A stretch of 64,000 nt of DNA from Clostridia bacterium (GTDB taxonomy: Bacteria; Bacillota; DTU025). Location: assembly GCA_034926675.1 (NCBI GenBank), contig JAYFQW010000028.1:4693-68692 (forward strand), given 5' to 3'. Under the pieces are notes generated by a model. That model saw only the letters and a program-made list of their open reading frames with translations, was not told where the DNA came from and did not search any database. Made by a program: the position numbers and the translations under genes. Every line of letters starts with the position of its first letter. The first letter of the stretch is position 1. Positions 34,429 to 62,125 of the stretch are shown here, piece after piece.

Positions 34429-34509
34429 GAGATCACTCCAAGTTCGAGGCGGCAGGGCGGCTCTCCCGGCGACTCGACGAGCCGCCCGCGCACGGATTGG
34501 GCTACCGGA

Positions 34510-38739: not shown

Positions 38740-38800
38740 AAACGGCTGACAGATCGCCGGGCCTGCAAGGCCCGCACATATGCACCTCCTCAGACGATGA

Positions 38801-39673: not shown

Positions 39674-39674
39674 C

Positions 39675-44119: not shown

Positions 44120-45994
44120 ATGTGCTCGGTGGGGGTGTGTGGGATGTCCGCCAATAGGCGTACTGGGGACGCCCAAGAGCAAGCGCCTGAACTCGCTGGC
44201 CTTGCAGAAGATGCGCAGAAGGCATGCGATGCCATAGCGGCCGTAGTAGGTCTGGAAGTGGAAATTGTCGACAAGAACCTGCTTCGGATAGCTGGAACTG
44301 GCAAGTACCGTCTCCGCGTAGGGCATTCACTCGAACACGAAGGCGCAGTGTATCGGCAAGTCCTCAGAACTGGTCAGGGCACAATTGTAACCAGGCCCGG
44401 TCTGGAACCCATTTGTGGCCTGTGTTCCAAGTACGGTAGTTGCGACGAGAAGGCGGAGCTTTCTGCACCGATAGCCGTTGAAGGCGATATTGTAGGCGTC
44501 ATCGGGCTGGTCTGCTTCGACCAATCCCAGCGCGCCAGGCTGCTGGACAGGCTTGAGTGTCACAAGAACTTCATCGAACATATGGCCGGTCTGCTTGCAA
44601 GCAAGATTCGAGAGCACGCTCTGTTGGAACAGGAGCGGCGCGCTGCTCAAGAGGTCGCTGCGCTGCTCGATCGGATGGCCGACCCGGTGCTGGCTGTAGA
44701 TCAGAATGGAAGGCTGGTCCATTACAACGTCCCGGCAGGCCGGCTTCTGAATATCCCTGATGGCGATGGCTTCAGTGCTGCCCAGCGGGAGAAACGCATG
44801 GTCTGCAGCACTGAGGAACTGGGGTTCTTGGAAAGCACTCTCAGAACCAAGGAAGGGTTCGAGGAGAAGGAGATGTTTCTCAGTTTCGGGGGAGTCGAGA
44901 AACCCTATCTCGTATCCGCTACGCCGTTGGCATCGGGAGGGCTTATCTACGGTGCTATGGCGGTGATCCGTCCGCTGGGAGAACTCCACCGCTGGGCCTA
45001 CAACTTGACGAATGCCGTGAAGGTATTCACGCTCAACGACATCATCGGGGAGAGCCCTGCGATCCAGCTCATCAAGGAGAAGGCGCTCAAGGTGGCGGGA
45101 GGCAAGTCCAACATCCTGATAACAGGAGAAAGCGGCGCCGGGAAGGAGCTGCTCGCAAGGGGAATACACAATGCGAGCGGCCGTGCTGACCGGCCGTTTG
45201 TCGCGGTGAACTGCGCCGCGATTCCAGATACTCTCCTCGAGAGCGAGCTTTTCGGGTACGAAGAAGGAGCATTCACAGGCGCGAGAAAAGGCGGCAAACC
45301 TGGAAAGTTCGAACTCGCCGACGGGGGGACGATCTTTCTCGATGAAATAGGCGAGATGCCCATCCATCTCCAGGCGAAGCTGCTCAGAGTGCTCGAAGGC
45401 TGGGAAGTGGAGCGTGTTGGAGGCACTCGGTCAAGGCCCATCGATGTGCGACTCATGGCCGCCAGCAATCAGGACCTCGAAGGGAAGATCGCTTGCAGAG
45501 AGTTTCGCGAGGACCTGTATTTCCGTTTGAACGTAATACCTTTGCAGGTCCCGCCGCTGCGCGACAGAGAAGGAGACACTCCGCTCTTGGCACGCTACTT
45601 CATCCGAAAGCATGCCGCCTTGCTCAACAAGAAGATCGAGGGGATGGAACCCAGCGTGGCTAGGTTGTTCGAGAGCTACTGGTGGCCCGGCAATGTCCGC
45701 GAGCTTGAGAACACAATCGAGCATGCCGCCAACATCGAGAGTACATCCATCATTCATGAACGGAGTTTGCCAGAGACGATTCGCACCAGGGCATCGAGCG
45801 TCTCGAGGAAGTTGCGCGGCCATGCGGGCATTGACGACATGGAGGCGCGCCTGATAGAAAAAACCCTGGGGCGATACGGGTACAGCTACCGTGGCAAGCA
45901 ACAGGCGGCGCGCGAACTGGGAATCGGCATTGCCACCCTTTATCGGAAAATGGCTCGCTATGGCATCCCGGGAGTCCATGCCGCAAAACGATAG
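44120..45994 (+). CDS. sigma-54-dependent transcriptional activator (GAF/PAS sensor - AAA+ - Fis HTH); start uncertain
   Basis: GESGAGKE Walker A, canonical GAFTGA (EEGAFTGA), C-terminal HTH (QQAARELGIGIATLYRKMARYG). N-terminal sensor with a Cys cluster (PICGLCSKYGSC). Confidence 0.85.
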   Translation: MCSVGVCGMSANRRTGDAQEQAPELAGLAEDAQKACDAIAAVVGLEVEIVDKNLLRIAGTGKYRLRVGHSLEHEGAVYRQVLRTGQGTIVTRPGLEPICGLCSKYGSCDEKAELSAPIAVEGDIVGVIGLVCFDQSQRARLLDRLECHKNFIEHMAGLLASKIREHALLEQERRAAQEVAALLDRMADPVLAVDQNGRLVHYNVPAGRLLNIPDGDGFSAAQREKRMVCSTEELGFLESTLRTKEGFEEKEMFLSFGGVEKPYLVSATPLASGGLIYGAMAVIRPLGELHRWAYNLTNAVKVFTLNDIIGESPAIQLIKEKALKVAGGKSNILITGESGAGKELLARGIHNASGRADRPFVAVNCAAIPDTLLESELFGYEEGAFTGARKGGKPGKFELADGGTIFLDEIGEMPIHLQAKLLRVLEGWEVERVGGTRSRPIDVRLMAASNQDLEGKIACREFREDLYFRLNVIPLQVPPLRDREGDTPLLARYFIRKHAALLNKKIEGMEPSVARLFESYWWPGNVRELENTIEHAANIESTSIIHERSLPETIRTRASSVSRKLRGHAGIDDMEARLIEKTLGRYGYSYRGKQQAARELGIGIATLYRKMARYGIPGVHAAKR

Positions 45995-46000
45995 CAGCGC

Positions 46001-46119
46001 CTATCAATGTGATGGGTTTCATTATCAGTGGTTCTTTCGCAACAATGCCGCCAGCATATCGCGCATTTGACGCACTTTGACTCTACCCTCGCAGGCAGAT
46101 ATTACTATCAACATGATAG
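46001..46119. promoter_or_regulatory. two palindromic candidate enhancer (UAS) sites CTATCA-N3-TGATRG (46001-46015 and 46105-46119)
   Basis: CTATCAacaTGATAG is a perfect 6-3-6 palindrome and CTATCAatgTGATGG has one mismatch. Centres are about 104 bp apart and about 105-210 bp upstream of the sigma-54 promoter. Confidence 0.4.
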
Positions 46120-46215
46120 GCGGCGTTCCTTGACGTCAGAAGCCTCGCTATTTCGACAGTGATAACTGCCCAGCTAAACGCGGGTGTTGTCGAACTTGTG
46201 GTCTAGATGTGGCAT

Positions 46216-46231
46216 GGCGTGGAAATTGCAT
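46216..46231 (+). promoter_or_regulatory. sigma-54 (-24/-12) promoter TGGCGT-N5-TTGCA
   Basis: tGGcgtggaaattGCa with GG/GC spacing of 10, about 105 nt upstream of the 46337 ATG and downstream of the sigma-54 activator gene. Confidence 0.55.
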
Positions 46232-46336
46232 GTCTTATCAGATCGAATGCACAGGCGCGATGTAACAACATGGATGGCAGGCGTATCGTGAGTGGCGCTT
46301 TGAGGAAGCCTGCCAAGCCTTATAGGAGGAAGTTGC

Positions 46337-47728
46337 ATGTCTCGGAGGATGGTATGGGGACCGACATTCGAGGAGATGCTGCATCCCGACAAGATCGACC
46401 CTCAGATCCGGAAGCAGGCTCTCGCAGCAAGGGAGAGCGATCCGCTCAACGAGATCAACCTGTACAATATCACCTGGAAGCGGCCGGATGGGAAGCCGTG
46501 TTACGTTGTCATTCCCAAAAAACTGACCGGAGTAGATGCCAACATCATAGCTCTGTACGGTCGGGACTTCCCCACGGGTTCACACAAGGTGGGGGCAACG
46601 TACACGGTTACGGTCGAAAAACAGCTCAATGGGGAGATCACTCCAGGTGAGCACACAGTGGTGTTCCCGTCCACAGGCAATTACGGAATAGGCGGCGCCT
46701 GGGTGGGGCCCCGCATGGGCTACGACTCCTTGGTGATTCTTCCTGAACTGATGAGCGCGGAGCGTTTCCAGAAGATCGAAGGATACGGGGCAAGGTACAT
46801 CAAGACAACGGGCTGTGAATCCAGCGTGAAAGAGATATACGATAAGTGCTGGGAGCTTAAGCGCCAACCCGAGATACGGGTGCTCAACCAGTTCGAAGTG
46901 ATGGGCAACTACAGATTCCACTACTACGTCACGGGCAATACCGCAGTTGAACTTGTTGCCGATCTCGCAAAGCGCGGAATAGGCAACGGCAGGTGCGCGG
47001 CGTTCGTCTCGGCGATGGGCTCTGGAGGCACCATAGCCGCAGGCGATAGGCTGAAAGAGGTCTTCCCCGAACATCGCATAGTCGGCCTTGAGCCGATTCA
47101 GTGCCCGACCCTTTTCAACAACGGATACGGCGACCACGACATCCAAGGCATTGGCGACAAGCACGCCACATGGATTCACAACGTTATGAACATGGATTGC
47201 CTCATGTGCATCGATGATATGGAGAGCAAGTGGGGCCTGCAACTGCTGACAGATCCTGTGGGCATGGAGTATCTGGCGCAGAATGCAGGAATCCCAGAAG
47301 AGACTGTACGCGAGATGTCCACCTTGTTTGGCATCTCAGGTGTATGCAACGTTCTGGGCGCGATCAAGACAGCTAAGCACTACAGGATGACCAGCAGCGA
47401 AAACGTGGTCACTGTGCTTACCGACACCATAGATCGTTACCATTCGGTGATGAGCGCATTGGATGACAAATTCGGCAAGATGGATGCAGGCAAGGCAGAA
47501 GCCCGCTTGTCAGGCATCTTCCGGAGCGCCAAGCTTGACTACATTCAAGAGGGAACTGTTAACAATCGCGATAGATGGTTCAACCTCAAGTACTACACCT
47601 GGGTTGAGCAACAGGGCAAGACAGTTGCTGAGCTGAACGCGCAGAGAAGCCAGGCCTGGTGGGCTGAAGAGCGGAGTAAAGTCCTTGATATCAACGACCG
47701 CCTTTGCCAAGCGCGAAAGCGGTCATGA
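46337..47728 (+). CDS. PLP-dependent enzyme, fold type II (TrpB/CysK/ThrC superfamily), 463 aa, specificity unknown
   Basis: PLP-lysine motif PTGSHKVG and glycine-rich phosphate loop [21 protein letters not shown]. Confidence 0.65.
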
Positions 47729-48965
47729 GAGCGGTGATGAGAGAGGAGTGATCACGATTAGCTTCCCTTTCGAGAAAGCATTGGATCAAGCAGAAGGATA
47801 CCGAAAGCAGATCTCCGGATTCCTGCGCGACATGGTCGCGATACCAGGTGAAAGCTGTCAGGAGAAGGCAGTGATCCAGCGGATCGGAGAGGAAATGGAG
47901 GCCGTAGGTTTCGACAAGATCGAGATCGATCCTATGGGCAACATCCTCGGACGCATTGGAACTGGCAAGACCCTGATAGCGATGGACGCACACGTTGACA
48001 CCGTTGGCATTGGAGACCCAAGCCTCTGGGAAGTCGATCCGTACAAGGGATACGAGGACGAGAACATCATCATGGGCAGAGGCGCCAGCGATCAGAGGGG
48101 CGGCATGGCCTCGATGGTGTATGCCGGCAAGATAATCAAGGATCTGGGCCTTGAGGGCGACTATACTTTCCTGGTGACCGGAACCGTTCAGGAAGAGGAC
48201 TGCGATGGCCTCTGTTGGCAATACCTCATCCACGATGGCGGAATTCGGCCCGACTTCGCCGTGATTACCGAGCCGACATCACTGAACATCTACCGTGGGC
48301 AGCGTGGACGTATGGAGATAAAGGTGACGACTAAGGGCATAAGCTGCCACGGATCCGCTCCTGAGCGGGGCGACAACGCGATCTACAAGATCGCCCCCAT
48401 CCTTCAGGAACTGCGTGCCCTAAACGAGAACCTTCATGTAGATTCGTTCCTGGGCAAAGGGAGCCTGACCGTATCCGAGGTCTTCTTCAGCTCGCCTTCC
48501 AGGTGCGCAGTTGCTGACGGGTGCTGGATCTCCGTCGACCGCCGGTTAACAGACGGGGAGACGTGGGAAATGGCTCTCGAGCAGATAAGGAATCTTCCGG
48601 CAGTTAAGGAAGGAAAGGCCGAGGTGTCGATGTACGGGTACGACCAGCCGTCATATACAGGTCTGGTGTATCCCACAGAGTGCTTCTTCCCGACCTGGGT
48701 CCTTCCCGGCGACCACATGGTCTGTGAGACGCTAGTCGATGCCTACCGTGGTCTATTCCAGAAGGATCCCCTCGTGGACAAATGGACATTTTCCACCAAT
48801 GCAGTGTCCATCATGGGGCGATACGATATCCCTTGTATAGGATTCGGCCCCGGGCACGAGGATCAGGCCCATGCTCCCAACGAGAGGACCTGGAAGGACG
48901 AACTGGTGAAAGCGACTGCCATGTACGCGATGATTCCCTTGCTCTATACCTCGAAAACCGCCTGA
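47685..48965 (+). CDS. M20-family metallohydrolase (ArgE/DapE/carbamoylase/YgeY-like); start uncertain (TTG at 47685 or GTG about 47748)
   Basis: M20 metal-binding motifs (AMDAHVDTV; [10 protein letters not shown]), dimerisation domain region. Confidence 0.75.
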
Positions 48966-49005
48966 CGATCCAGGCAGAAGAACTGTGTATGGAGGAATTT
49001 GAGCA

Positions 49006-49992
49006 ATGCAGACGATTTTCAGGGGAAAACACTTCATCACCTTGGAGGAATGGTCGCTTGAGGAGATCGATACGCTTCTGGATGTGTCGTATGAGCTGAA
49101 GCGCGATTTTGCCATGGACAGGCCCACAGATTACCTGCCGCGCAAGACCGTGTTCCTCATGTTCTTTGAGCAGTCTACGCGCACTCGAAACTCAATGGAA
49201 GCCGGCATTACGCAGTTGGGCGGACATGCCCACTTCCTCGATGCCAGCAACATGCAGATCGCGCACGGCGAAGTCGCCAAGGATACGGCAGTCATCCTCT
49301 CGAGAATGGGCCACGCCATAGCCTGCAGGAACTGCTTCTGGAAGCAGGGGAATACGTATCTTCGCGACATGGCGAAGGCTTCGACAGTCCCCATCATCAG
49401 CATGCAGGACGATCTGTATCACCCACTTCAGGCCATTGCAGACCTGATGGCGATCCAGGAGAAGAAGGGCAGGAACACCAGGAACCTTAAAGTCTCCGTG
49501 ATATGGGCGTACGCCACAACCCACAAGAAGCCCATCTCCGTTCCTGTGAGCCAGGTCCTTCTCTTCCCGAGATACGGAATCGATGTCACGCTTGCCTATC
49601 CAGAGGGATACGATCTGCCCGACTGGGTAATCGAGAAGGCCAGGAAGAACGCTGGCGCCCACGGCGGATCCTTCAGGATAACTCATGACCAGGAAGAAGC
49701 CTATCGAGATGCCGACGTCGTATTCCCCAAGAACTGGGGCAGCTGGGTGACCAACGAGAGCACGGCAGTGGTTGACTCGCTTCTCGAAGCGAACAAGGGC
49801 TGGAAGTGCACCAGCGCCCGGATGGCGCTGACGGCGAAGGATTCACTATACATGCACGCCCTGCCTGCCGACCGCCTCAACGAAGTAGAGGACGCCGTGA
49901 TCGACGGGCCTCACTCAGCCATCTACGATGAGGCAGAGAACAGGCTTCACACAGCAAAGGCCGTCATGGCGCTTACCATGGGGGGAAGATAG
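49006..49992 (+). CDS. carbamoyltransferase of the ATCase/OTCase superfamily with a non-canonical second-substrate site
   Basis: Carbamoyl-phosphate motifs STRTRNS and HPLQ are present. The ornithine SMG loop is replaced (DVVFPKNWGSW) and HCLP is replaced by HALP. Confidence 0.75.
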   Translation: MQTIFRGKHFITLEEWSLEEIDTLLDVSYELKRDFAMDRPTDYLPRKTVFLMFFEQSTRTRNSMEAGITQLGGHAHFLDASNMQIAHGEVAKDTAVILSRMGHAIACRNCFWKQGNTYLRDMAKASTVPIISMQDDLYHPLQAIADLMAIQEKKGRNTRNLKVSVIWAYATTHKKPISVPVSQVLLFPRYGIDVTLAYPEGYDLPDWVIEKARKNAGAHGGSFRITHDQEEAYRDADVVFPKNWGSWVTNESTAVVDSLLEANKGWKCTSARMALTAKDSLYMHALPADRLNEVEDAVIDGPHSAIYDEAENRLHTAKAVMALTMGGR

Positions 49993-50064: not shown

Positions 50065-50613
50065 GTGATACCGGAGTCGGCATGGATCCAGTCCCTGATG
50101 CCGGGGACCCGTTTCCACTGGGGGTTTTTCGTGGCTCTGGCGGCGGCCCTGCTGGCGTATGTGATTCTCTGGCGGACCAGCCTTGGCTTCAAAATCCGGG
50201 CTGTGGGCATGAACCGGAGCGCTGCCCGGTATGCGGGAATCGACGAGAAGAAGATATTCGTGATCGTCTTCCTGATCAGCGGAGCGTTTGCCGGCCTGGC
50301 CGGGTTCATGGAGGTCAATGGCATCCAGCACATGGCCGTCCAGGGGTTCAACCCGGTGCTGGGCTCGGAGGGGATAGGGATAGCCATCCTGGGCAACGCT
50401 CACCCTCTAGGAATTGTGCTCTCCGGCCTGCTGTTCGGGGCGCTCAAGGTGGGTGGAAACCTGCTGACGCAGACGACCACCATTCCATCTAGCATCATCG
50501 GGATCATGGAAGGCTTCGTGATGCTCTTTGTGGTTCTGTCGTACTTCGTCCAAAAGAAGATCATCCTGGCCCAGCGCAAGAGAGACCTGGTGAAAGGGGA
50601 GGAGAGCGTATGA
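50065..50613 (+). pseudogene. N-terminally truncated ABC transporter permease (RbsC/Bmp-type), C-terminal half only
   Basis: 182 aa beginning 72 nt after the preceding stop. Contains the mid-protein RAVGMNRSAARYAGI motif but lacks the N-terminal TM helices. Confidence 0.45.
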
Positions 50614-51544: not shown

Positions 51545-52291
51545 CTAAGCTAAGGCTTGACCGGGCGGACATGCTGCTTGAGTCCTCCGCGAGATGGTTT
51601 CGCACTTCTCTCTATGGACGCACACATCGCACATGCTATAGGCTCTGAGCCTTTCTGGGAGCGTCGGGCCCATGGGAAACATGACTGACACCGACTTGAG
51701 CGGGCTCATCATGAACGAGGAGGACAGTGTGACTCCGATTCTGCGGGCGTCGAGCAGCGAGAACAGCACTGCCTGGGACTCTATGGGGATGGCATGGCAC
51801 CCAGGCGCGAGCCTGGGGCCTATGTCAACCTGGAGGCGTTCCGCTTCCGCGCGTCTGGCGCAGACCGCTCGGAACTCGCCTGTCATGCGACGAAGGAGAA
51901 TAGTGCCCATCGTGTCGAGGACGACTGCGGCGAGGGGGTCGCCCGAGGCGAACACCTCCTGCACTCTGTGCTCCAGGTTCGGGCCTATGGTTCCGATGCC
52001 GATGGCTAAGTGTGTTGCCCCTTGAAGCAATGGGCCTGAACATGAGATGTCGAAGCCCCCTGCTAGGCTTATCGAGTCACGCGTGATGGCGGTAATCCTG
52101 CTGACCGTTGAGATGAGCATGGGCGTTGCGAGCCCTGCGGAGATTGCGACGTTGGCCTCTTCGATGGATTGGAGCACTGATTGAAGCGCAGCGCCGGATG
52201 ACTCGCCGCCGATGGCGGCGAGCACCTCTTCAGGCGGAATAGCAGTAGCCTGCATATGTATGATTCGGCAGTCAGCGTATGGCTCTATCAT
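51545..52291 (-). CDS. methionine-synthase activation-domain-like protein (Met_synt_B12-type, candidate SAM-dependent corrinoid reactivation)
   Basis: RLAPGCHAIP and SFMMSPLKSVSVMF resemble MetH activation-domain motifs RPAPGYPACP and SFAMWPGASVSGWYF. Lies 4 nt downstream of the RACo gene. Confidence 0.5.
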   Translation of the reverse strand: MIEPYADCRIIHMQATAIPPEEVLAAIGGESSGAALQSVLQSIEEANVAISAGLATPMLISTVSRITAITRDSISLAGGFDISCSGPLLQGATHLAIGIGTIGPNLEHRVQEVFASGDPLAAVVLDTMGTILLRRMTGEFRAVCARRAEAERLQVDIGPRLAPGCHAIPIESQAVLFSLLDARRIGVTLSSSFMMSPLKSVSVMFPMGPTLPERLRAYSMCDVCVHREKCETISRRTQAACPPGQALA

Positions 52292-52306
52292 TGTTGTGAC
52301 AGCCTT

Positions 52307-54292
52307 TCATAGTGGAACGTGGGACTGGGCTTCAAAGGTCATGCAGTCGGTGAAGACTTCCATGAACCTAGGATCCGCGCTTAACTCGATGTGCTCGATT
52401 ACGCGCGCAAGGCGGAGCGCCTCGCGGTAGAAGACGCTGTTCGCGACTGCTAGTGCCGCTCCTTCCCCTGCCGCGTTTCCGATCGACTCGATCCTGGCGC
52501 GTTGAGCGGCCGGCAGAAGGCCTATGGCCACTGCAGCCCGGTTATCCAGGTATGTGCCGAAGGCGCCTGCGAGGACTACTCGCTCAAGATCGCCCGCTCC
52601 AATTCCCGCCTGCGCAAGCAGGATCTCTGCGCCTGCCCTGATTGCTCCCTTTGCGAGCTGCAGCTCCCGAACATCGCGCTGGGTGAGGGCCACCTCGGGT
52701 GTGCTCTCCTTCGCTAGCTTCAGGATGAATCGAGCGCCGCCGGGTCCGTCTACGAGCCGCTTGTCGCCAGCGCCCTGGGCGTAGGCGCCATTGCCCAGGA
52801 TCAAACCTGCTTCGCGCAGTGCAGCCACCAGGCTCACTAACCCCGATCCGCACACCCCGATTGGTTCTCCGCCGCCGATCACGTGCAGCTCAATGCCTGC
52901 GTCCGTCTGCAGATGCGGCAGATGCCTGTCTGAAGTGCGCGGCTTGCGCAGCCCAGCCCAGTCGATGGCCCCATCGGAGGCGATCATCCCGCACGAGATG
53001 CTTACCCCCTCAAAGGCCGGCCCGGCTGCAGTGGAGCAGGCAAGCACTCGTCCATTCGCCGCGAGCAGTATCTCACCATTAGTGCCGATGTCGATAAGGA
53101 GCATGGGGCGTGAGTGCTCGTGGACGCCCGCTGCTACTGCTGCGGCAAGTGCGTCGGAGCCGACGAATCCGGCTATGTTCGGGAGAAAGAAGAAACGTCC
53201 AAGGGGGTTCACCGAGTGAACACCCACATCAAGCGGTGACATGAGTCCACAGTCAATCGCCGCCGGAGCGTATGGAAGCCTTGCTAGCCTGCCGGGTGCG
53301 ATGCCTAGGAACAGATGGTGCATGCAGGTGTTCCCAACGGCTCCCGTGAGGTAGATCTGCTTACTGCTCACCCCTGCTTGTGAGGCGAGCCTGGCTATGA
53401 GGCTGTCGATTGCGTCAACTGCCTCCGAACGCAACTCAGCGAGGCCGCCGGGGCTCTCGGAGTAGGCGATGCGCGAGATGAGGTCAGCGCCATGCCTGGA
53501 TTGCGGATTCAGCGTTCCCGTTGCGCCCACAATGTGGCCAGAGGACAGATCGATGAGATACGCCACGAGGGTGGTAGTGCCGATATCAAGTGCGATCCCA
53601 TAGGCGGAGGCGCGTACAGCGGACGTGCAGGCGGATGTGCAGGCGGCGGATGTGCAAGCGGCGCCCGCGGCTGCTGTCTCCGCCACATCGATCAGCTGGC
53701 CATCTACGGATACTCCGTGCAGCCGCAGGGCGCCCGTGCTTCCCGTGCCTGAGAAGGCCTGAGCCGCTCGCCTGATGAGGGGCAATACGCCCTGGCCGGC
53801 GTTGAACGCCGACGCGACGCGTTCCCAGTCGGAGGCGGCTGGCTTCTCCAGGTCGATCAGGACATCGCGCATCGTCACCCGAGGTTCGAATGCCGTTCGG
53901 GCGTCAGCAGACGGAGCGGCATTCGCTCCGCCCTCTGCCAGGGCCGGGTCTCCGTGCAGAAGCACGAAGGCAGAACGCTCAATATCTGGGCCGGCGGCGC
54001 CTATGATCACTTCGGAGTCGCCCGCGATTGCTGCCTGGCACGCGAGACGCACGCCGCCGGCGAGTTCAGCCTCGGTGAGCAATTCTCGCTCAGCGTCGGT
54101 CGGAGCCGAGAGTCCGCCAGTCGCTGATACCTTGCATCTACCGCACACTCCTCGACCGGCGCACGGGGCATACACGCCCACACCCGCACGCCTCAATATG
54201 TCGAGCAGCAAGGCGCCTGGTTCTGCAATTGCGCAGATCTCGGTATGTGCGCTTGGCTGCGCGGCGCGTCCTACGATTCGAACAGAGGTCAA
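52307..54292 (-). CDS. reductive activator of corrinoid proteins (RACo/RamA-like: N-terminal [2Fe-2S] ferredoxin + ASKHA ATPase)
   Basis: Plant-type ferredoxin Cys pattern (CAGRGVCGRCKV...LACQ). Large ASKHA-like domain with an Ala/Cys/Thr/Ser-rich low-complexity insert. Confidence 0.7.
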   Translation of the reverse strand: MTSVRIVGRAAQPSAHTEICAIAEPGALLLDILRRAGVGVYAPCAGRGVCGRCKVSATGGLSAPTDAERELLTEAELAGGVRLACQAAIAGDSEVIIGAAGPDIERSAFVLLHGDPALAEGGANAAPSADARTAFEPRVTMRDVLIDLEKPAASDWERVASAFNAGQGVLPLIRRAAQAFSGTGSTGALRLHGVSVDGQLIDVAETAAAGAACTSAACTSACTSAVRASAYGIALDIGTTTLVAYLIDLSSGHIVGATGTLNPQSRHGADLISRIAYSESPGGLAELRSEAVDAIDSLIARLASQAGVSSKQIYLTGAVGNTCMHHLFLGIAPGRLARLPYAPAAIDCGLMSPLDVGVHSVNPLGRFFFLPNIAGFVGSDALAAAVAAGVHEHSRPMLLIDIGTNGEILLAANGRVLACSTAAGPAFEGVSISCGMIASDGAIDWAGLRKPRTSDRHLPHLQTDAGIELHVIGGGEPIGVCGSGLVSLVAALREAGLILGNGAYAQGAGDKRLVDGPGGARFILKLAKESTPEVALTQRDVRELQLAKGAIRAGAEILLAQAGIGAGDLERVVLAGAFGTYLDNRAAVAIGLLPAAQRARIESIGNAAGEGAALAVANSVFYREALRLARVIEHIELSADPRFMEVFTDCMTFEAQSHVPL

Positions 54293-55266
54293 TGCCGTCC
54301 CTCCATCATGAATGCGTCGATGTTCTCGTGCGGGGTCTCATAGGGGAGGTCGCAACCGGTGCTGAGTATGAAGTTATCACGTTCCGCCATGGAGTCAAGC
54401 AATGCGCGCACTGCCCGAGCCACGTTCTCCGGGTCCTGCTGCACCATGACGCCGACTGGATCGACGTTGCCGATCAGCACGACCTCTGGGTCAACCACCC
54501 TGGCCGCTGCCGGGAAGTCCACCGGGGAATCGAGGGATAGCCCCTGTGCACCTGTTGAACACATCTCGCGCAGGAGGTGCGTGGTGTCGCCGCATATGTG
54601 TAAGACCATAATGTCGGCCATTCCGGGAGAGGCGATGAGTTCCTTGACGTACGTTCCACAGAATTCATGGAAAGATCTGGGGGATAGGAACGTGGCTGTG
54701 GGTTCGAGGATTGCGACCATGTCGGCTCCGGCGTCAGCCAGGGCCCGGGCATACCTGATGCACAGGTTCTGGCAGAATCTCACTGTACCATGAACGAGCT
54801 CGGGATCGGTGATGGTGGCGACCGCAAGCTCCGAGGCGCCCATGAGCAGACCGGCCAGGGTGAACGGTCCAGTTATGTATCCGGCTTTCGGGATCGAGAT
54901 GCTGCGGCTCATCAGTTCCATCGTCTTGACATATGCTGCTATCCTGGCATCGTCCATAGGATCGAGAGCATTCAGAAGGGCAAGATCGGTCACCTGGGTC
55001 ACTGGGTGCTCTTCCACCGTTGGCGATTCGAACGGAGGGTATCTCACAGGAAGGCCGAGGGCCCCCGCTTCTAGGGAAAGATCCATCATAAAGAAGATCG
55101 CATCGGGAGAGAACCGCTCTGCAGCCCGGGCCACGGTCCTGGCGTGCAGACCGGGGTTGAACTCGTTCTGCTTGAGAGAGGAGCCGGTGAGGCGTGCCCC
55201 AGGGTAGCCCAGCAGGGGCACGACAAGTCGCCGCTCTGATGATCGCACCAGATCAATGAGCCTCAT
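54289..55266 (-). CDS. MtaA/MtbA-like methylcobamide methyltransferase (URO-D family)
   Basis: DAIFFMMD, ILEPTATFLSP, zinc motif HICGDT with a second Cys (EMCSTG). Start at ATG 55266 (MRLIDL) after an AAAGGAGG RBS; the listed ORF extends to 55356. Confidence 0.7.
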   Translation of the reverse strand: MRLIDLVRSSERRLVVPLLGYPGARLTGSSLKQNEFNPGLHARTVARAAERFSPDAIFFMMDLSLEAGALGLPVRYPPFESPTVEEHPVTQVTDLALLNALDPMDDARIAAYVKTMELMSRSISIPKAGYITGPFTLAGLLMGASELAVATITDPELVHGTVRFCQNLCIRYARALADAGADMVAILEPTATFLSPRSFHEFCGTYVKELIASPGMADIMVLHICGDTTHLLREMCSTGAQGLSLDSPVDFPAAARVVDPEVVLIGNVDPVGVMVQQDPENVARAVRALLDSMAERDNFILSTGCDLPYETPHENIDAFMMEGRH

Positions 55267-55288
55267 TGAGCTGCCTCCTTTCCGCGCG

Positions 55289-55924
55289 TCACGCGTGAAC
55301 GAGCAGTCGCGCCAGGTCAACTGCCGAGCTTGCATCTGGAGAGTAGCCGTCCGCACCGATCTCCTTGGAGTAGCGGTCTGTAACTGGTGCGCCGCCTATG
55401 ATCACCTTGACCTGGTCCCTCAGGCCTGCAACCTTCAGGGATTCAATGGTAGCTTTCATGGCGGGCATTGTCGTTGTGAGAAGGGCGGACATCCCCAGAA
55501 TGTCGGGCCTCTCGTTCTTCACGGCATCAACGAACTTGCCAGGCGGCACATCAGTGCCCAGGTCAATCACTTCGAACCCAGCGCCTTCGAACATCATCTT
55601 AACAAGGTTCTTGCCGATGTCGTGAAGATCGCCCTTGACAGTGCCGATTACGAGCTTGCCGGCAAATGAAGCTCCCGTCTTCGCCAGGATCGGCCTGATT
55701 AGGTTCAGCCCCGCATACATCGCCCGTGCGGCCACCATCACCTCAGGGACGTAGATCTCGTTCCTCTTGAACTTGGCGCCAACGACCAACATCGGAGCAA
55801 TCAGGCCTTCATTCAGAATCTCCTGAACATCAACGCCATCTGCGAGCGCCTTCTCGGTGATCTCCTTCACCTTCGGCGCGTTTCCCGCATCAAGCGCCGC
55901 GCACATTTCGCTGTAGTCGAACAA
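55289..55924 (-). CDS. cobalamin-binding corrinoid protein (MtaC/MtbC-like; B12-binding_2 cap + Rossmann B12 domain)
   Basis: DxHxxG cobalamin-binding motif (DLHDIGKN), GGAPVT loop, about 210 aa. Confidence 0.8.
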   Translation of the reverse strand: MFDYSEMCAALDAGNAPKVKEITEKALADGVDVQEILNEGLIAPMLVVGAKFKRNEIYVPEVMVAARAMYAGLNLIRPILAKTGASFAGKLVIGTVKGDLHDIGKNLVKMMFEGAGFEVIDLGTDVPPGKFVDAVKNERPDILGMSALLTTTMPAMKATIESLKVAGLRDQVKVIIGGAPVTDRYSKEIGADGYSPDASSAVDLARLLVHA

Positions 55925-56033
55925 CAGAACAACCTCCCGTCAATGGTCAGTGATCTTTGCCAACTCGAGTGTCCAATGCTAGCTTAGAGCATTACAGTGA
56001 CTGTTTCCATGGACACATCTGTGGTTTCATGCA

Positions 56034-57341
56034 CTATCCTGCTGAAATCATCCGTTTGCGGTAGTCTCGCGGAGACAGCCCTTCCGCCCGTTTGAAACAC
56101 CTGCTGAAGTGGGCAGGGTCCTGAAAGCCAGTCCTCTCCGCTACTTCTGCAATTCCACATCCTGCCACGGTCAGCAGATGCTTCGCCTCTTCAATGCGCA
56201 TCGCTGTGAGGTAATCCATGACGGATGTGCCCGTTTCCTGCTTGAACAGGTGGCTGAGATGGGATGGGCTGAGGCAGACGTAGGAGGCTACGTCGGCCAC
56301 CGAGAGTTTGTTGGAGAAGTTGCGGCGCATGAAGGCGGCACACTCTCGGATTACACCCTTGCTTACGTGTGCGCACCCGGCGTCAGTATTGTTGTGGCGG
56401 TTGTGTCCTGTTCCAACCGCCGCCCTCGTTTCCGATTCGCGCCCGCCACGGGTGCTGTCGGCTGCATCTGGGACTGCAGTGAGGAACTCGTCGAGCACGC
56501 GAACGATCCAGGCACACAATTCCTCGAACACCGCACAGCGCGAAAGCAGTCCTACTGACTCGTAGTTGAGCCCTAGGATGCGCTCTGGGTCTGCTCCTGC
56601 CTCCACAGCCGCTCTGGCCAGGAATACGGCGAGTTCCAAGAGTCGTGCTTTGATGATATCGATTCGGGTGGGCTCAGTGAGGAAGATGTCGGCGAGCATG
56701 GTATTGAGGATTCGCTTCGCTTCTGAACGCTGCCTTGCGCGGACTGCGCGCATCAGATCGCGCTCTCTGCGAGGGGAGTACATTCCCCAGGTGCAGCAGG
56801 CCTTCTCAAGCCGTTTGCGCTCCTGTATCTCCTCTCCCAGCAGCCGTTGCTGCCTGTAGATCTCGTTTCTCTGACGCAGTGCGAGGTCGTTCGACTGAAC
56901 AACGTGGGAAGCTGCCGCGAACAGCAGTTCCGCAGCTGCCTGCACTCTTACAGTGGAAACGTGCTCGATTTCGCCTACTGCTTCCGCTAGGCGGATTCTG
57001 TCGATGCAGAGGTCGGCCGTGCGGGCGGACACGTCCTGAACGAAGTAGTCGTCAGGCTCCCACATGATGACCTGTCCGCATACGATGGACCCAAGCAGGC
57101 CGCCGCCAAGGGCGGTTTCGTCTGCCACGAGAGGCGCCGCCCAACACACCAGCCCAGCATGGCATTGGAACACGTAGAGGTCTCCGAGGTTCTCGGCCTC
57201 CCGGCCCGCGCGAGCATACGAACGGGAGCATCTGTCCCGGCCCTCCTGCGAGGATCGCACTAGTCTGCAGAGGGAACAATGCTCCCAGTCGCGCGGCGCC
57301 ATCACCGGTTCGCCTGAAGCGCCGATTACCCTGGCGACCAT
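56034..57341 (-). CDS. AraC-family transcriptional regulator with an N-terminal PocR-like sensory domain
   Basis: C-terminal AraC HTH (LSVADVASYVCLSPSHLSHLFKQETG...). N-terminal roughly 170 aa PocR-like domain (FQCHAGL region); PocR domains are associated with B12-related regulons. Confidence 0.65.
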   Translation of the reverse strand: MVARVIGASGEPVMAPRDWEHCSLCRLVRSSQEGRDRCSRSYARAGREAENLGDLYVFQCHAGLVCWAAPLVADETALGGGLLGSIVCGQVIMWEPDDYFVQDVSARTADLCIDRIRLAEAVGEIEHVSTVRVQAAAELLFAAASHVVQSNDLALRQRNEIYRQQRLLGEEIQERKRLEKACCTWGMYSPRRERDLMRAVRARQRSEAKRILNTMLADIFLTEPTRIDIIKARLLELAVFLARAAVEAGADPERILGLNYESVGLLSRCAVFEELCAWIVRVLDEFLTAVPDAADSTRGGRESETRAAVGTGHNRHNNTDAGCAHVSKGVIRECAAFMRRNFSNKLSVADVASYVCLSPSHLSHLFKQETGTSVMDYLTAMRIEEAKHLLTVAGCGIAEVAERTGFQDPAHFSRCFKRAEGLSPRDYRKRMISAG

Positions 57342-57564
57342 CCCCGTCGCCTCAGTGAAGGAACGGAGGATGCGCTCCAGAGTCGGCTCTTCCAGAACAT
57401 CGCTCAGATTCGTCAGACCTCTCCACCTCCCTTGGCTGCCTCATCGAAGCTGCCTTTCCGAGTGTGGTGTCGCGCGTGCCGTTGACACCGGCACGACAGT
57501 ACCAATAGAATAGTAGTGATCAATATTACTACTACCCTATTTGGGGTTCGGAGGCAAGAGCCAC

Positions 57565-58419
57565 GTGATTGGATTGGTCGATGCTCTACAGGGAATGGGC
57601 CTTTCGCTGAATGAGGCCAAGGCATACTACGCCCTTGTACGCGAAGGGCCAGCGAACGGCTATGAGATAAGCAAGAGGTCTGGGATTACCAGATCGGTGG
57701 TGTATGGTGTCCTCGACAGGCTCGTGGAAAAGGGATACCTCCTCCCGGTCGATTCCGACCCGGTGATGTATGCCCCGCTGCCTCCGTCGCAGCTTGTAAA
57801 GGGATTTCGTGAGACTTACGAATCGAATCTAGGCAATCTGGAACGCGGCCTCAGCAAGCTCGCCGCCGGAGTGAACGAGGAGGCGTACATTCTGGGAGTG
57901 TCGGGCTATGATGACACGATCCGGAAGGCGCGGGATCTTATCCGCAACGCAATGGTGGAAGTTGTGGTGTCCGCCTGGGGAAGCGACTGTGCGCCTATTC
58001 GGCAGGATCTGGAGGATGCGCACCGAGCCGGCAAGCATGTAATCATCTTCTGCCATACCAAGGTGCCTTTCAACGTGGGGAGCATCCACGAGTATGGGCT
58101 CGACGAGAGTATCATAAGGCACAAGTGGCCCAACAGGCGGATTGTCGTTGCGGCCGATTGCCGAACGGTGCTCTTGGGCGACATCAGAAATGGCTCCGAT
58201 TTGGGGATAGTGACATCCAATCCGATCATCGTTCAGATGACTGTTGAGCATGTCATACTCGACATACTGCATCTTGCGCAGTTGAAGTCGGGTATAGGCG
58301 ACCTAGCGGAGCATATACACTCGGGCGACGACTATATGCGGGTAATCGAGGATCAACACAGGAAGCTATCCCTTGGACAGCTGGACCTGCCTACGCCTGT
58401 CCCCATGGATGGACGATAG
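57565..58419 (+). CDS. TrmB-family sugar-responsive transcriptional regulator
   Basis: N-terminal winged HTH (LSLNEAKAYYALVREGPANGYEISKRSGITRSVVYGVLDRLVEKGYL), C-terminal TrmB sugar-binding-like domain. GTG start after GGAGG. Confidence 0.65.
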   Translation: MIGLVDALQGMGLSLNEAKAYYALVREGPANGYEISKRSGITRSVVYGVLDRLVEKGYLLPVDSDPVMYAPLPPSQLVKGFRETYESNLGNLERGLSKLAAGVNEEAYILGVSGYDDTIRKARDLIRNAMVEVVVSAWGSDCAPIRQDLEDAHRAGKHVIIFCHTKVPFNVGSIHEYGLDESIIRHKWPNRRIVVAADCRTVLLGDIRNGSDLGIVTSNPIIVQMTVEHVILDILHLAQLKSGIGDLAEHIHSGDDYMRVIEDQHRKLSLGQLDLPTPVPMDGR

Positions 58420-58687: not shown

Positions 58688-61600
58688 ATGAGGGGGACGC
58701 CGATGAACGCGCTCTCTAGTCTTCTGGGCCGCCGTTTCCGAATGATCGTATTCGACTGGGACGGCACGGCGGTTGCGTCAAGGCATGATCCCGTCGACCA
58801 CCTGCTCTGGAGAGCGGAGGCGCTTCTGGGGCGGGGGGTGTGGCTTGTCGTCATAACAGGCACGAACTTCGACAATCTGAACCGTCAGTTCTTCTCCAAG
58901 GTCAGCCCGAGCCTGAAGACGCAGTTGCTTGGCTGTGTAAACCGGGGCTCGGAGGTGTACGGCTTCACCGAGAACGGCGCTCCCGTACGGCGCCACGCCA
59001 GAATCGCAACTGGTCTCGAGAACCGGCTGATGGACCAGGTGGGCGAGATGGTGCGCCGCCATCTCATGGAGGAATACGGCCTGGAAACGCGGATCATCGC
59101 GGACCGGATGAACAGGCGAAAGCTGGATATCATCCCGATGCCAGGGTGGCAAGATCCGAGAAAGGAGGACATCGGTGAGCTGCTTGCCGCAGTCGACACG
59201 CGCCTGCGTGATGCCGGAGTGCCCGGAATTCGCCATGTGCTCGGCCTTGTTCAGCGATACTGCTGCGATGTTGGCCTCGATGCCCGGATTACCACCGATG
59301 TGAAGCACATAGAGTACGGGCTGACCGACAAGTCGGATTCGGCGGGGTACATCCTGGATCAGATAAGGCCTGCCCAGGGAATGGTCAACGATGATGTTCT
59401 CTTCATCGGCGACGAGTTCGGACCTGTTGGGGGTTTCGAGGGAAGTGACCACAGGATGCTTGTAGGCCAGGCCAGCGGAGCATCGTTTGTGAGTGTCGGC
59501 CGCGAACCCAGCGGTGTTCCCGAGGGCGTGCGCCACATCGGCGGCGGAGTTCCGTCATTTGTCAGCATCCTCGATGAACAGAGGAGGCTCTGGAGGCCAA
59601 GGCCTATCAGGCAGTCCGCGGATGATCTTGTCTCTCCAGGCGATAAGGCCTGGTCCGCCTGGGAATGTGCATGCAATGCGCGAAACGCTGCAGCCTATGA
59701 AACCATGTTCACTGTGGCAAACGGATACATGGGGACGCGCGGCGCCCACGAAGACGGGCTGTACCGCGGGGTTCCCGTCACGTTCGTGGCTGGGCTCTTC
59801 GATCAGGCGCCGGGCGATCTGACCGAGCTGGTCGTCATCCCGGACTGGCTTCCCGTTCGCCTTCGGCTCGATGGCAGAGATGTGATCCCGCACATGGTTG
59901 GAAAGCCGCAGTCTGGGGGACCCGACCGCGAGGGGCTGGCTTCTGCAGACGGCGGCGAGGTTTTCGACTATTCCCGCGCTCTTGACGTGGCTCGCGGCGT
60001 GCTCAGGCGGACATACAAGTACAGATCCGCCGACGGGCGGGTGCTTAGGGTCGAGAGTGAGCGTTTCGCGTCCATCGCCTCGCCCCACATGATGCACATG
60101 AGCTACCAGGCAACGATGGAGAAGGGGACGGGGATGGTGACTCTGAGTTCCATCTTGGATGGCGACGTTGCCAACTCCGGCGCTGCGCACCTGGCCATCG
60201 ACGTGGTTGACGCGGATTCCCATGGCGACTCCCTCATCTGCGGAACGACGCTGCAGTCAGGGATTCCAATCGTTATGGCGTGCTCTGCGCGTGCCTACGT
60301 GACTACGCCTGAGGCTGCACGGGCCGCAGCCCTAGCCACAGCGCCAGCCGCCGATCGAGCCGCCGAACACGATTTCCAGGTTCTCCTCTCTGAGGGCAGC
60401 TCGATTGTCCTGGAGAAGCATGTCGCCGTGTACACCGGCCGCGACGCCGACAGGCCTGCGCACTCCATGGCCTCGGTCGGTCCGTGTGATTCCATGCATG
60501 CCTCTGCCCCAGGCGGTTCATTTCGGGGTGATCTGATTCGAGCTGCCAGGCTGGCGTCCTCCAGTGCAGCAGAAGCCGGTTTCCACCACGTGTTGACTCA
60601 GCATGCGGCCATGTGGGCCGGTAGGTGGGCGAAATGCGATGTGCAGGTCGATGGGCCTGAGCGTGACCAATTGGGAATCAGATTCGCGATGCACCACCTC
60701 ATGGCGTGTGCCTCCGACACTGATGAGACTGTGAGCATACCAGCAAAGGGTCTGCATGGTGAAGGGTATAGGGGGCACATCTTCTGGGATACGGAGATCT
60801 TCGCGTTCCCGTTCTTCGCAGCATCCTTCCCCAAGATCGCCAGGAACCTCCTGATGTACCGATATGGCACTCTTCCCGGCGCTAGGAGGAAGGCTCGGGA
60901 GAACGGGTACAGGGGCGCGATGTTCGCGTGGGAGAGCGCCGACACAGGTGACGAGACGACCCCGAAATGGTCGAAGCCGCATCCTGCCACGGGGGAGCGA
61001 ACCCGCATATGGTGTGGCGATACCGAGGATCACGTGACAGCCGATGTGGCGTACGCGGTTACGCGCTACTGGCGCTGGACTGGCGACAACGTGTTCATGC
61101 GCGAGCACGGTGCGGAGATGGTCATTGAGGCTGCTCGATTCTGGGCGGCGCGCGCCAGCTGGAGCGCGGAGAAGGGACGCTATGAATACCTCAGAGTGAT
61201 CGGTCCTGATGAGTACCACGAGAATGTGAACAACAACGCTTTCACCAACTACATGGCGCATTGGACGATCCGCGCAGGGCTTGCTGCATGTTCCTGGCTG
61301 CGGAGGGAATGCACTCCGCATTGGGAGGCGCTTGCGCGGCGCATCGGCCTGGAGGAAGCGGAACTAGAGGAGATGCAACAGGTTGGGAACCTCATCCACC
61401 TGCCTGAGCCGGATCCATTCACGCGCCTTATCGAGCAGTTTGAAGGGTACTGCAAATGCGACCATATCGACCTGACGAATCTGAATACAGGGGGGAGGCC
61501 TGTGGAGTCGGTGCTTGGGCATGACGCCGTGGCGAAAAGCGATCTGGTCAAGCAGGCTGATCTACTCATGCTTGCTCGCCTTCTGCCAGGTCTGTTTGAC

Positions 61601-62125
61601 CATGAGGTGTGGCAGGCCAACTGGGATTTCTACGAACCCCGCACCGCCCACGGGTCATCGTTGAGCCCGTCGCTTCACGCTGCTCTCGCCTGCAAACTCG
61701 GCAGTTCTGAGGACGCATACAGGTATCTTCAGCACGCTATCTCCCTAGACCTTTCTGATCACATGGGCAATCTGAATGACGGAATACACTGTGCCAACCT
61801 CGGCGGGATCTGGCAGGCCGCGGTGTTTGGCTTCGCTGGAATAGAGGTAGAGGCTGCCGGCGAATGCGGACCGACAACACTTCGGATATCGCCCCGACTC
61901 CCGGATGAGTGGGATCGCATCGAGGCTTCCATTGAACTCAGAGGGCGCCAGATGAGAGTTGCAGTCACGCGAGGGCGAGTTGAACTTGCCCTCGAGGCAT
62001 CGGCAGGCCATGGGCGTGGACATGTGCCAGCTCCCTTGCTGCTAACCCTTAATCCCGGTGAAGCTTATCCCCTCGACGAAATACCGCTGGAACACGATGA
62101 AGAGCACGGCGATGGGCAGCGCTGA
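58688..62125 (+). CDS. large fusion protein: N-terminal HAD-IIB phosphatase-like domain + glycoside hydrolase family 65 (disaccharide phosphorylase) domain; OtsB1 (Rv2006)-like architecture
   Basis: HAD motif I FDWDGTAV near the N-terminus. GH65 catalytic region (GYRGHIFWDTEIFAFPFF) and (alpha/alpha)6 barrel. Confidence 0.75.
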   Translation: MRGTPMNALSSLLGRRFRMIVFDWDGTAVASRHDPVDHLLWRAEALLGRGVWLVVITGTNFDNLNRQFFSKVSPSLKTQLLGCVNRGSEVYGFTENGAPVRRHARIATGLENRLMDQVGEMVRRHLMEEYGLETRIIADRMNRRKLDIIPMPGWQDPRKEDIGELLAAVDTRLRDAGVPGIRHVLGLVQRYCCDVGLDARITTDVKHIEYGLTDKSDSAGYILDQIRPAQGMVNDDVLFIGDEFGPVGGFEGSDHRMLVGQASGASFVSVGREPSGVPEGVRHIGGGVPSFVSILDEQRRLWRPRPIRQSADDLVSPGDKAWSAWECACNARNAAAYETMFTVANGYMGTRGAHEDGLYRGVPVTFVAGLFDQAPGDLTELVVIPDWLPVRLRLDGRDVIPHMVGKPQSGGPDREGLASADGGEVFDYSRALDVARGVLRRTYKYRSADGRVLRVESERFASIASPHMMHMSYQATMEKGTGMVTLSSILDGDVANSGAAHLAIDVVDADSHGDSLICGTTLQSGIPIVMACSARAYVTTPEAARAAALATAPAADRAAEHDFQVLLSEGSSIVLEKHVAVYTGRDADRPAHSMASVGPCDSMHASAPGGSFRGDLIRAARLASSSAAEAGFHHVLTQHAAMWAGRWAKCDVQVDGPERDQLGIRFAMHHLMACASDTDETVSIPAKGLHGEGYRGHIFWDTEIFAFPFFAASFPKIARNLLMYRYGTLPGARRKARENGYRGAMFAWESADTGDETTPKWSKPHPATGERTRIWCGDTEDHVTADVAYAVTRYWRWTGDNVFMREHGAEMVIEAARFWAARASWSAEKGRYEYLRVIGPDEYHENVNNNAFTNYMAHWTIRAGLAACSWLRRECTPHWEALARRIGLEEAELEEMQQVGNLIHLPEPDPFTRLIEQFEGYCKCDHIDLTNLNTGGRPVESVLGHDAVAKSDLVKQADLLMLARLLPGLFDHEVWQANWDFYEPRTAHGSSLSPSLHAALACKLGSSEDAYRYLQHAISLDLSDHMGNLNDGIHCANLGGIWQAAVFGFAGIEVEAAGECGPTTLRISPRLPDEWDRIEASIELRGRQMRVAVTRGRVELALEASAGHGRGHVPAPLLLTLNPGEAYPLDEIPLEHDEEHGDGQR

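Follow-up and report, generated by a model that had tools for sequence, protein, structure and literature searches.

In the present study, we analysed a 64,000-nucleotide stretch of the genome of an anaerobic Clostridia bacterium (contig JAYFQW010000028.1; the whole stretch is called the window here) and found on its minus strand a five-gene operon (57341-51545), which belongs to the corrinoid-protein methyltransferase clusters with a reductive activase of the RACo type. The last gene of the operon encodes a 248-amino-acid (aa) relative of the reactivation domain of methionine synthase (MetH), and this small protein is referred to as TM0269-like after its closest relative of solved structure. 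A first-pass annotation of this DNA had regarded the presence of two reactivation modules in one operon as an unusual redundancy. Our results deflate that claim, and two apparently uncharacterised features emerge instead, namely the coupling of RACo to the TM0269-like protein and the link of the system to sugar importers through paralogues of the uroporphyrinogen decarboxylase (URO-D) superfamily. We read the locus as the shared core of a corrinoid methyl-transfer system with a composite reactivator, URO-D partners and a thiol-type acceptor, and we consider it about an even matter whether this reading is right in all its parts. Judging from the gene context, the system most likely serves the anaerobic removal of methyl groups from imported carbohydrates.

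The five minus-strand open reading frames (ORFs) carry Pfam and NCBIfam domains that agree with the gene order and the domain calls of the first-pass annotation. The first gene encodes a regulator of 435 aa with a PocR sensory domain (108 bits) and an AraC-type helix-turn-helix (HTH_18, 92 bits; 56034-57341). It is followed by a corrinoid (cobalamin-binding) methyl-carrier protein of 211 aa (55289-55924), an MtaA-like zinc methyltransferase of the URO-D superfamily (54289-55266; URO-D 222 bits), a RACo-type reductive activase that is predicted to be ATP-dependent (52307-54292) and the TM0269-like protein (51545-52291). The intergenic distances along the module are 109, 22, -4 and 15 nt. A plus-strand permease gene converges on its end, so the five genes form one operon that ends with the 248-aa gene. 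The whole module is kept in L006-L008 and in L178/L179 (GCA_028680845.1), where the last protein is 43-47% identical to that of the window. Orthologous PocR-AraC regulators lead the same module in L006, L007 and L178, and PocR-AraC genes also adjoin RACo in about 10 other RACo loci.

The identity of the last gene product was examined at the level of profile and fold. Its Pfam match to Met_synt_B12 (PF02965) reached 27.0 bits against a cut-off of 25 and covered residues 158-205 only; a chance Pfam match was considered for this ORF and rejected on the profile and fold evidence. In a HMMER scan over 1.84 billion cluster representatives, relatives were found in 2266 representatives at E<=1e-3 and in 392 at E<=1e-10, and nearly all of them are stand-alone proteins of 220-260 aa. 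A word-indexed protein search gave 2 matches with the single sequence and 15 with a profile. When the profile of 45 relatives was compared with the PDB, 1J6R was the best match (E=3.3e-21 over 194 positions), and chains of MetH came next. The entry 1J6R is TM0269, deposited as the S-adenosylmethionine (AdoMet or SAM)-binding activation domain of the Thermotoga maritima methionine synthase, and Huang et al. (2007) state in their title that TM0269 is required for reactivation of the T. maritima MetH (TM0268). The AlphaFold model of the window protein had a predicted local distance difference test (pLDDT) of 92.4. With this model, Foldseek returned 19 significant matches, all of them TM0269 or MetH reactivation domains with a probability of 1.00, and the TM-score against 1J6R was 0.76 when normalised to 1J6R. 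On the model, the 248-aa protein is predicted to have the MetH reactivation-domain fold, with TM0269 as its closest solved relative. The earlier proposal that the ORF at 51545 aligns to the MetH activation domain was thus borne out by Pfam, by the profile and by the fold matches.

The residue counts for this family were taken over 151 representatives. G164, Q173 and P197 are invariant and T101, D126, P163, K199 and S200 near-invariant, and the core that is common to the family and to the TM0269/MetH domain consists of P163-G164, Q173 and P197-x-K-S. At the C-terminal end, 147 of the 151 representatives carry a C-x2-C-x(4-5)-C motif that is lacking in TM0269 and MetH; in the window protein it reads C221-x2-C224-x5-C230. 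The RxxxGY sequence, which we take to be the AdoMet/cobalamin-contact motif of MetH, has its Arg in 46 representatives and its Tyr in 17. At this site the window protein reads R160-L-A-P-G-C165, with Cys at the position of Tyr, and its subfamily keeps the Arg, Pro and Gly of the MetH motif (R160, P163 and G164). The earlier 'SAM-type' label for this protein is therefore insecure.

The partner of this protein in the operon has the domains of the RACo family. Pfam assigned to it a [2Fe-2S] ferredoxin domain (Fer2, 28 bits), Raco_middle (164 bits) and RACo_C_ter (242 bits). In the RACo alignment the ferredoxin cysteines C44, C50, C53 and C85 are invariant, and the motifs DIGTTT and DIGTNGE of the ASKHA domain are present. 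Against AcsV (NF040756), the activase specific for the corrinoid iron-sulfur protein, it scored 359 bits and did not reach the curated cut-off of 800. The linker between its ferredoxin and middle domains contains a low-complexity Ala/Cys/Thr/Ser repeat (AAGAACTSAACTSACTSAVRAS) at about residues 205-230 (window about 53600-53680, minus strand).

To follow the pairing of the two genes in other species, one genome per species was scanned by the RACo alignment, the best 80 loci were kept, and TM0269-like ORFs in them were found by profile search; this sample was ranked by similarity to the window RACo and is therefore not unbiased. A TM0269-like gene was present in the RACo operon in 11 of the 80 loci (L014, L025, L026, L032, L034, L042, L043, L044, L051, L058 and L064), in hosts including Desulfosporosinus, Thermincola, a deltaproteobacterial metagenome-assembled genome (MAG), Anaerolineales, Thermotogaceae/Mesotoga and Paracoccaceae. 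In addition, L018 holds a TM0269-like fragment and L079 a distant copy. Furthermore, fusions were found among the 150 best relatives of the 248-aa protein, in four cases. In P0034 (793 aa) and P0085 (831 aa), the TM0269-like domain is followed by the [2Fe-2S] domain and then by the RACo middle and ASKHA domains, and in P0042 and P0029 it is followed by a [2Fe-2S] ferredoxin. As a side observation, the closest species-level RACo locus among the best 80 is L010:8304-12100 (Bacillota MAG-64; RACo 48% identity), which has a PocR gene, a corrinoid protein, an MtaA-like gene that is apparently truncated or frameshifted and a 736-aa RACo. A UROD_B orthologue (see below) lies at a distance of 8 kb, and the search for a TM0269-like gene at L010 found none.

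The operon sharing, the fusions P0034 and P0085 and the conservation across the module do not fit an unusual redundancy of two reactivation modules, and the RACo and TM0269-like proteins read better as one composite reactivation unit. Their genetic and physical coupling was observed, and the way in which they would act together is proposed further below. It might be argued instead that they are two independent repair routes, RACo working with ATP and the TM0269-like protein being a separate SAM-dependent reductive-methylation factor that acts on this corrinoid protein in other circumstances or on a truncated MetH elsewhere in the genome, in the way that TM0269 serves TM0268. The requirement for TM0269 in the reactivation of MetH and the R160, P163 and G164 kept in the window subfamily agree with such separate routes, and Price et al. 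2018 (PMC5764234) treated PF02965 and RamA-like proteins as alternatives. Against them stand the single-polypeptide fusions to RACo, the operon shared with RACo in the 11 loci, the three-cysteine motif that TM0269 and MetH do not have and the rarity of the motif Tyr. Moreover, no MetH, Pterin_bind or S-methyl_trans domain was found in the window, where RACo is the neighbour of the TM0269-like gene. A role of the 248-aa protein as a MetH partner was rejected for the same reasons, as there is no MetH nearby and the domain is fused to RACo elsewhere. Overall, we consider two separate routes to be decidedly improbable.

The company of more distant three-cysteine TM0269-like genes, outside the RACo sample, is also informative. 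At L174:367-1068 such a gene lies beside DUF3870, a corrinoid protein and two MtmB genes, at L175:7001-7702 beside Pterin_bind and a RACo without the Fer2 domain, and at L180:8001-8705 with MttB and a corrinoid protein and with no RACo within 8 kb. From the company of MtmB, of RACo with Pterin_bind and of MttB systems, it follows that the family is a general accessory of corrinoid-protein systems. Two points weigh against the composite unit as we propose it. The L180 gene, with no nearby RACo, indicates that the TM0269-like protein may also act without RACo, which would suit independent routes. In addition, SAM binding by the TM0269-like protein is doubtful, because RxxxGY is not conserved.

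For the methyl carrier itself, cap and Rossmann B12-binding domains (B12-binding_2 and B12-binding) were identified, and its D-L-H-D-I-G sequence fits the DxHxxG motif. The best NCBIfam match was MtgC-like (239 bits, cut-off 370), and the score against TIGR02370 was 195 bits (cut-off 215). Since the TIGR02370 and MtgC scores are all under their cut-offs, no substrate-specific subfamily was given to this protein.

The next gene was called as an ORF of 55356-54289. However, the ATG at 55266 is preceded by a ribosome-binding site AAAGGAGG, and the protein read from there has 325 aa, its orthologues having 323-325 aa, so this ATG is almost certainly the true start, as judged from the sequence. Within the URO-D superfamily, the protein is nearest to methylcobamide methyltransferases of the MtaA/MtbA type. 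It scored 160 bits against MtaA/CmuA (TIGR01463), for which the curated cut-off is 235, and 71 of 283 aligned positions (25.1%) are identical with Methanosarcina mazei MtaA (4AY7). Its H223, C225 and C305 align with the His-x-Cys...Cys zinc ligands of the same structure. Kountz and Balskus (PMC10418091) define Mlp proteins by more than 25% identity to a characterised coenzyme M (CoM) methyltransferase, regard the His-Cys-Cys pattern as a mark of S/Se-methyltransferases and report that selenide and sulfide are methylated by an MtaA-like protein. We infer that the MtaA-like enzyme of the window passes the methyl group to a thiol/selenol-type acceptor and not to tetrahydrofolate. The first-pass annotation had left both methyl donor and methyl acceptor unassigned. 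On the acceptor side this is somewhat too cautious, as the MtaA-like enzyme keeps the His-Cys-Cys site typical of thiol/selenol methyltransferases.

The same properties could indicate a self-contained sulfur/selenium methyl system, in which the lone MtaA-like enzyme demethylates a methyl-thiol or methyl-selenide or uses an unlinked partner, and the URO-D/ATP-binding cassette (ABC) operons are unrelated sugar genes nearby by chance. The His-Cys-Cys zinc site and the roughly 25% identity to MtaA would suit it, and so would the match to the parts list of the type 1 mlp clusters (a corrinoid protein, Ram/RACE and no tetrahydrofolate methyltransferase). In a rough neighbour-joining tree, the window MtaA-like protein falls in the broad His-Cys-Cys clade that also holds the mlp-like triplets of L084, L085 and L069, and it stands there apart from these triplets, branching together with L058 and L031. 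Also in keeping with a self-contained system, the module of L178 has no adjacent URO-D paralogue. However, a type 1 cluster needs at least Mlp2 and Mlp3, and donor-to-acceptor transfer via the corrinoid protein is impossible with a single methyltransferase; a simple type 1 mlp cluster was rejected on the ground that only one MtaA-like gene is present. The flanks hold no sulfur/selenium genes and have sugar genes instead (TrmB and the glycoside hydrolase family GH65 in the window, Leloir genes in L178), and the URO-D paralogues stand in the same operon as the module in L042 and L051. We therefore consider a self-contained sulfur/selenium system, with a chance neighbourhood of the sugar genes, to be unlikely.

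In O-demethylase systems, the methyltransferase on the tetrahydrofolate side is pterin-binding or MtrH-like. The domain scan covered 53 of the 58 non-overlapping window ORFs with a length of 100 aa or more, and it found no MtaB, MttB, MtmB, MtrH or Pterin_bind domain, so that the earlier statement that no canonical substrate methyltransferase or pterin-binding MT-II is present holds within the window. The same annotation had named two URO-D paralogues in sugar-transporter loci as candidate partners, and our comparisons strengthen this proposal.

Both paralogues are candidate substrate:corrinoid methyltransferases and each is the first gene of an ABC operon on the minus strand. Paralogue A (UROD_A, 376 aa, 41127-42257; Pfam URO-D 36 bits) opens ABC operon A (42257-37495), which continues with a CUT1-type importer of two permeases and a GanS/MalE-like binding protein (37495-40970; BPD_transp_1 twice, SBP_bac_1/8; the binding protein GanS-like 252 bits, MalE-like 225 bits). 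Paralogue B (UROD_B, 365 aa, 36193-37290; URO-D 53 bits) opens ABC operon B (37290-32528) with a second CUT1-type importer of a binding protein and two permeases (32528-35772; SBP_bac_1/8, BPD_transp_1 twice). The NCBIfam matches of the two are methylcobalamin methyltransferase models only, the sole match of UROD_A being a weak one to methylcobalamin:CoM methyltransferase. Of the MtaA zinc triad, UROD_A retains His alone. UROD_B has His-Cys-Asn at the MtaA ligand columns and an additional Cys331, and in its family His259, Cys261 and Cys331 are invariant. Members of this family from Bacillota, Atribacterota, Thermotogota and Omnitrophota share 50-70% identity, and the family is annotated merely as 'uroporphyrinogen decarboxylase family protein'. 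In the tree, UROD_B lies in a clade in which the third Cys is replaced, alongside other URO-D genes that neighbour corrinoid proteins.

The gene order in relatives connects these paralogues with the module. In L002 and L090-L093 the order is RACo, TM0269-like gene, Amidohydro_2, UROD_A and ABC genes, and in L009 it is RACo, TM0269-like gene, UROD_B and binding protein. In L042 (Thermotogaceae), a UROD_A-like gene, permeases, a UROD_B-like gene, corrinoid protein, MtaA-like gene, RACo and TM0269-like gene are contiguous, and L051 likewise has URO-D paralogues within the module operon. In L161, L163 and L169, a single operon comprises UROD_B-type paralogues, a corrinoid protein gene and ABC genes, and UROD_B homologues lie near RACo in L010, L116, L125 and L132. 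L042, L161, L163, L169, L010, L116, L125 and L132 are independent cases of the URO-D/corrinoid link. Based on these results, the missing substrate enzymes of the module are probably the URO-D genes beside the sugar importers.

Several points weigh against this assignment of the URO-D genes. The loci L002, L009 and L090-L093 are syntenic relatives of the window (flagellar cluster and FliA on the same side), so the adjacency seen in them is only partly independent. Outside the window lineage, a corrinoid protein or RACo is encoded no more than 10 kb away in only about 3 of 20 long UROD_B loci. The L178 module has ABC operon B nearby, but the 18 kb visible there contain no URO-D paralogue, and the window module is set apart from the URO-D operons by about 8 kb of unrelated genes. 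Between the two, at 50064/50065, an independent assembly departs from the window. The fold search with UROD_B matched URO-D decarboxylases as well as MtaA and gave no separation of the two.

These points bear directly on the possibility that the URO-D paralogues are non-corrinoid enzymes of a sugar pathway, such as decarboxylases or cobalamin-independent alkyl transferases, and that the true methyltransferase lies outside the window. This possibility agrees with the lack of both corrinoid protein and RACo genes up to 10 kb from most UROD_B loci, with the level ranking of URO-D decarboxylases and MtaA in the fold search, and with the fact that the visible genome comprises 64 kb only. On the other side, the invariant His259, Cys261 and Cys331 fit a zinc alkyl-transfer site, whereas uroporphyrinogen decarboxylase itself uses no metal. 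The NCBIfam matches are solely to methylcobalamin methyltransferase models, and homologues stand in operons together with corrinoid proteins (L161, L163, L169 and L042) or adjoin RACo (L116, L125, L132 and L010). We consider non-corrinoid URO-D enzymes somewhat unlikely, and the URO-D genes are retained as the probable substrate enzymes.

The wider neighbourhoods of UROD_B were examined in 80 loci (79 from a metagenome scan, L095-L173, and L094), in which the neighbours were clustered and Pfam was applied to the cluster representatives. GFO/IDH/MocA oxidoreductases were found in 13 loci, GH29 fucosidases in 7 loci (20 genes) and fucose isomerase in 7 loci. Further neighbours are FGGY kinase, class II aldolase, short-chain dehydrogenase/reductase (SDR), LacI, sugar ABC genes, GH51 and mannosidase fragments. 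Example loci are L107:6853-8154, L112:13085-14581 and L094. The neighbour genes place the UROD_B family in fucose and glycan utilisation, which suggests a conserved and uncharacterised role of this family in deoxy-sugar or glycan catabolism.

Taken together, the following mechanism is proposed. From the gene context, UROD_A and UROD_B would demethylate an imported O-methylated carbohydrate and transfer the methyl group to the Co(I) form of the corrinoid protein, conceivable examples being the methylated fucose and galactose residues of glycans from plants and algae. The corrinoid protein, as expected from its domains and from family knowledge, would hold the methyl group on cobalt, and the MtaA-like enzyme with its His-Cys-Cys site would unload it onto the thiol/selenol-type acceptor instead of tetrahydrofolate. 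RACo would reduce the inactive Co(II) form to Co(I) at the expense of ATP and by way of its [2Fe-2S] cluster, as is the case for the RACo family. By analogy with the domain in MetH, the TM0269-like protein may bind to the corrinoid protein at its cobalamin face, where it could keep the cofactor in a reducible His-off state and may trap Co(I) by methylation. Its three cysteines may serve as a site for a metal or an Fe-S centre. In such a two-part activase, the metal-site homologue would couple the ATP-driven reduction by RACo to the capture or uncapping of the cofactor, and this arrangement may be frequent among bacterial corrinoid activases. The PocR-AraC regulator presumably controls the module. 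That oxygen-free sugar O-demethylation by a cobalamin/URO-D system and a two-part RACo/three-cysteine activase both hold jointly is a tentative proposal, and we regard the conjunction as somewhat unlikely.

The range of methylated compounds open to anaerobes in guts, sediments and digesters is set by their corrinoid methyltransferase systems. The large family that links a MetH-type domain to RACo, in some cases within a single polypeptide, suggests that cobalamin repair includes a step that has not been recognised so far. Our literature search, with most subscription journals outside its reach, found no description of a RACo/PF02965-like pairing and no corrinoid-dependent sugar demethylase, and the only carbohydrate demethylases that it found need oxygen; the UROD_B family is a candidate for a route without oxygen. 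Should the methyl group end up on sulfide or a thiol, methanethiol would also enter anoxic sulfur cycling from this pathway.

The surroundings of the module were also inspected. A TrmB-family sugar regulator (57541-58419, plus strand; Pfam TrmB) is divergent from the PocR-AraC gene, and it is also the divergent neighbour of the module in L178/L179 (464 bits). Downstream of it lies a GH65 glycoside phosphorylase/hydrolase (58688-62125, plus strand) of 1145 aa, which is unusually long and has about 330 N-terminal residues without a Pfam match. On the other side, an Amidohydro_2 protein of 247 aa (42605-43348, plus strand; Pfam 92 bits) lies next to ABC operon A. The region 44120-49992 (plus strand) encodes a sigma-54 activator followed by a cysteine-synthase-like pyridoxal phosphate (PLP) enzyme, an M20 peptidase and a carbamoyltransferase (ornithine carbamoyltransferase 237 bits and YgeW 185 bits, both under cut-off). 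The trio of PLP enzyme, M20 peptidase and carbamoyltransferase resembles the ygeW/ygeX/ygeY type of nitrogen-catabolic cluster, and in relatives no such trio separates the corrinoid module from the URO-D operons. The first part of the window (1-32448) holds a complete-looking flagellar cluster from FliD to FlhA, with FlhF, a MinD-like ATPase, a PilZ protein and FliA; genes for a sigma-54 response regulator and a PAS histidine kinase are also part of it. This cluster adjoins the URO-D/ABC operons and shows synteny with L090-L093. The Rfam scan of the window gave no family at threshold, cobalamin riboswitch included, and the promoter/terminator scan of the window was not above shuffled sequence.

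The contiguity of the window was compared with an independent Logan contig (L001), which is 100% identical to it from 53519 down to 50065 and divergent beyond. Past the junction, L001 has the N-terminal half of a BMP-type permease gene and then an ABC ATPase, whereas the window has the carbamoyltransferase-like gene instead and is left with a truncated permease ORF (50065-50613). No repeats flank the 50064/50065 breakpoint. This junction reflects either a false join made in assembling the MAG or a deletion at strain level. Because L001 diverges there, the contiguity of the window at this point is unverified; the conclusions on the module are independent of it.

Compared with known systems, the locus shares several features with the O-demethylases (Odm/Vdm of Acetobacterium/Desulfitobacterium, Mtv of Moorella and MtoABCD of Methermicoccus; PMC8630106). 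Like the locus, these have a corrinoid protein, a RACo-type [2Fe-2S] activase, substrate methyltransferases of the URO-D superfamily with partly replaced zinc cysteines, and clustered transporters and a regulator. They differ in that the methyl group is unloaded to tetrahydrofolate or tetrahydromethanopterin by a separate methyltransferase, whereas the window has no such enzyme and only the MtaA-like His-Cys-Cys protein. Their substrates are aryl methyl ethers, often with transporters of the major facilitator superfamily, and here sugar-type CUT1 ABC importers are found. In the literature found, no TM0269-like partner is described for them, while the locus has one.

The type 1 mlp clusters of anaerobic Firmicutes (PMC10418091) resemble the module in the MtaA-like His-Cys-Cys protein, the corrinoid protein, the bacterial Ram/RACE and the lack of a tetrahydrofolate methyltransferase. 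However, they have at least Mlp2 and Mlp3 in a sulfur/selenium context, and the module has one MtaA-like gene in a carbohydrate context. The text of that paper contains no PocR regulator and, under 'methionine synthase', no activation-domain partner. With the TM0269/MetH reactivation domain (PF02965), the window protein has the fold and the conserved core in common, but it has no adjacent MetH, carries Cys in place of the RxxxGY Tyr and has the extra three-cysteine tail. The TM0269/MetH domain partners flavodoxin and MetH, and the window protein partners RACo. In the split MetH, MtgBCD and MecGH systems, a RamA-like (DUF4445) activase is likewise combined with a small accessory, DUF1638, described as the RamA partner (PMC5764234; PMC12478193; bioRxiv 10.1101/2021.08.30.458270). 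DUF1638 is unrelated in family to PF02965, whereas the accessory of the locus is a homologue of the MetH reactivation domain. Finally, the P450 carbohydrate demethylases of marine bacteria, which act on 6-O-methyl-D-galactose (PMC6292453), would perform the same task if the sugar reading is right. They use oxygen-dependent oxidation, but the locus would use oxygen-free methyl transfer to Co(I). If this is true, it would be an oxygen-free counterpart of the P450 enzymes, built on a widespread uncharacterised URO-D family.

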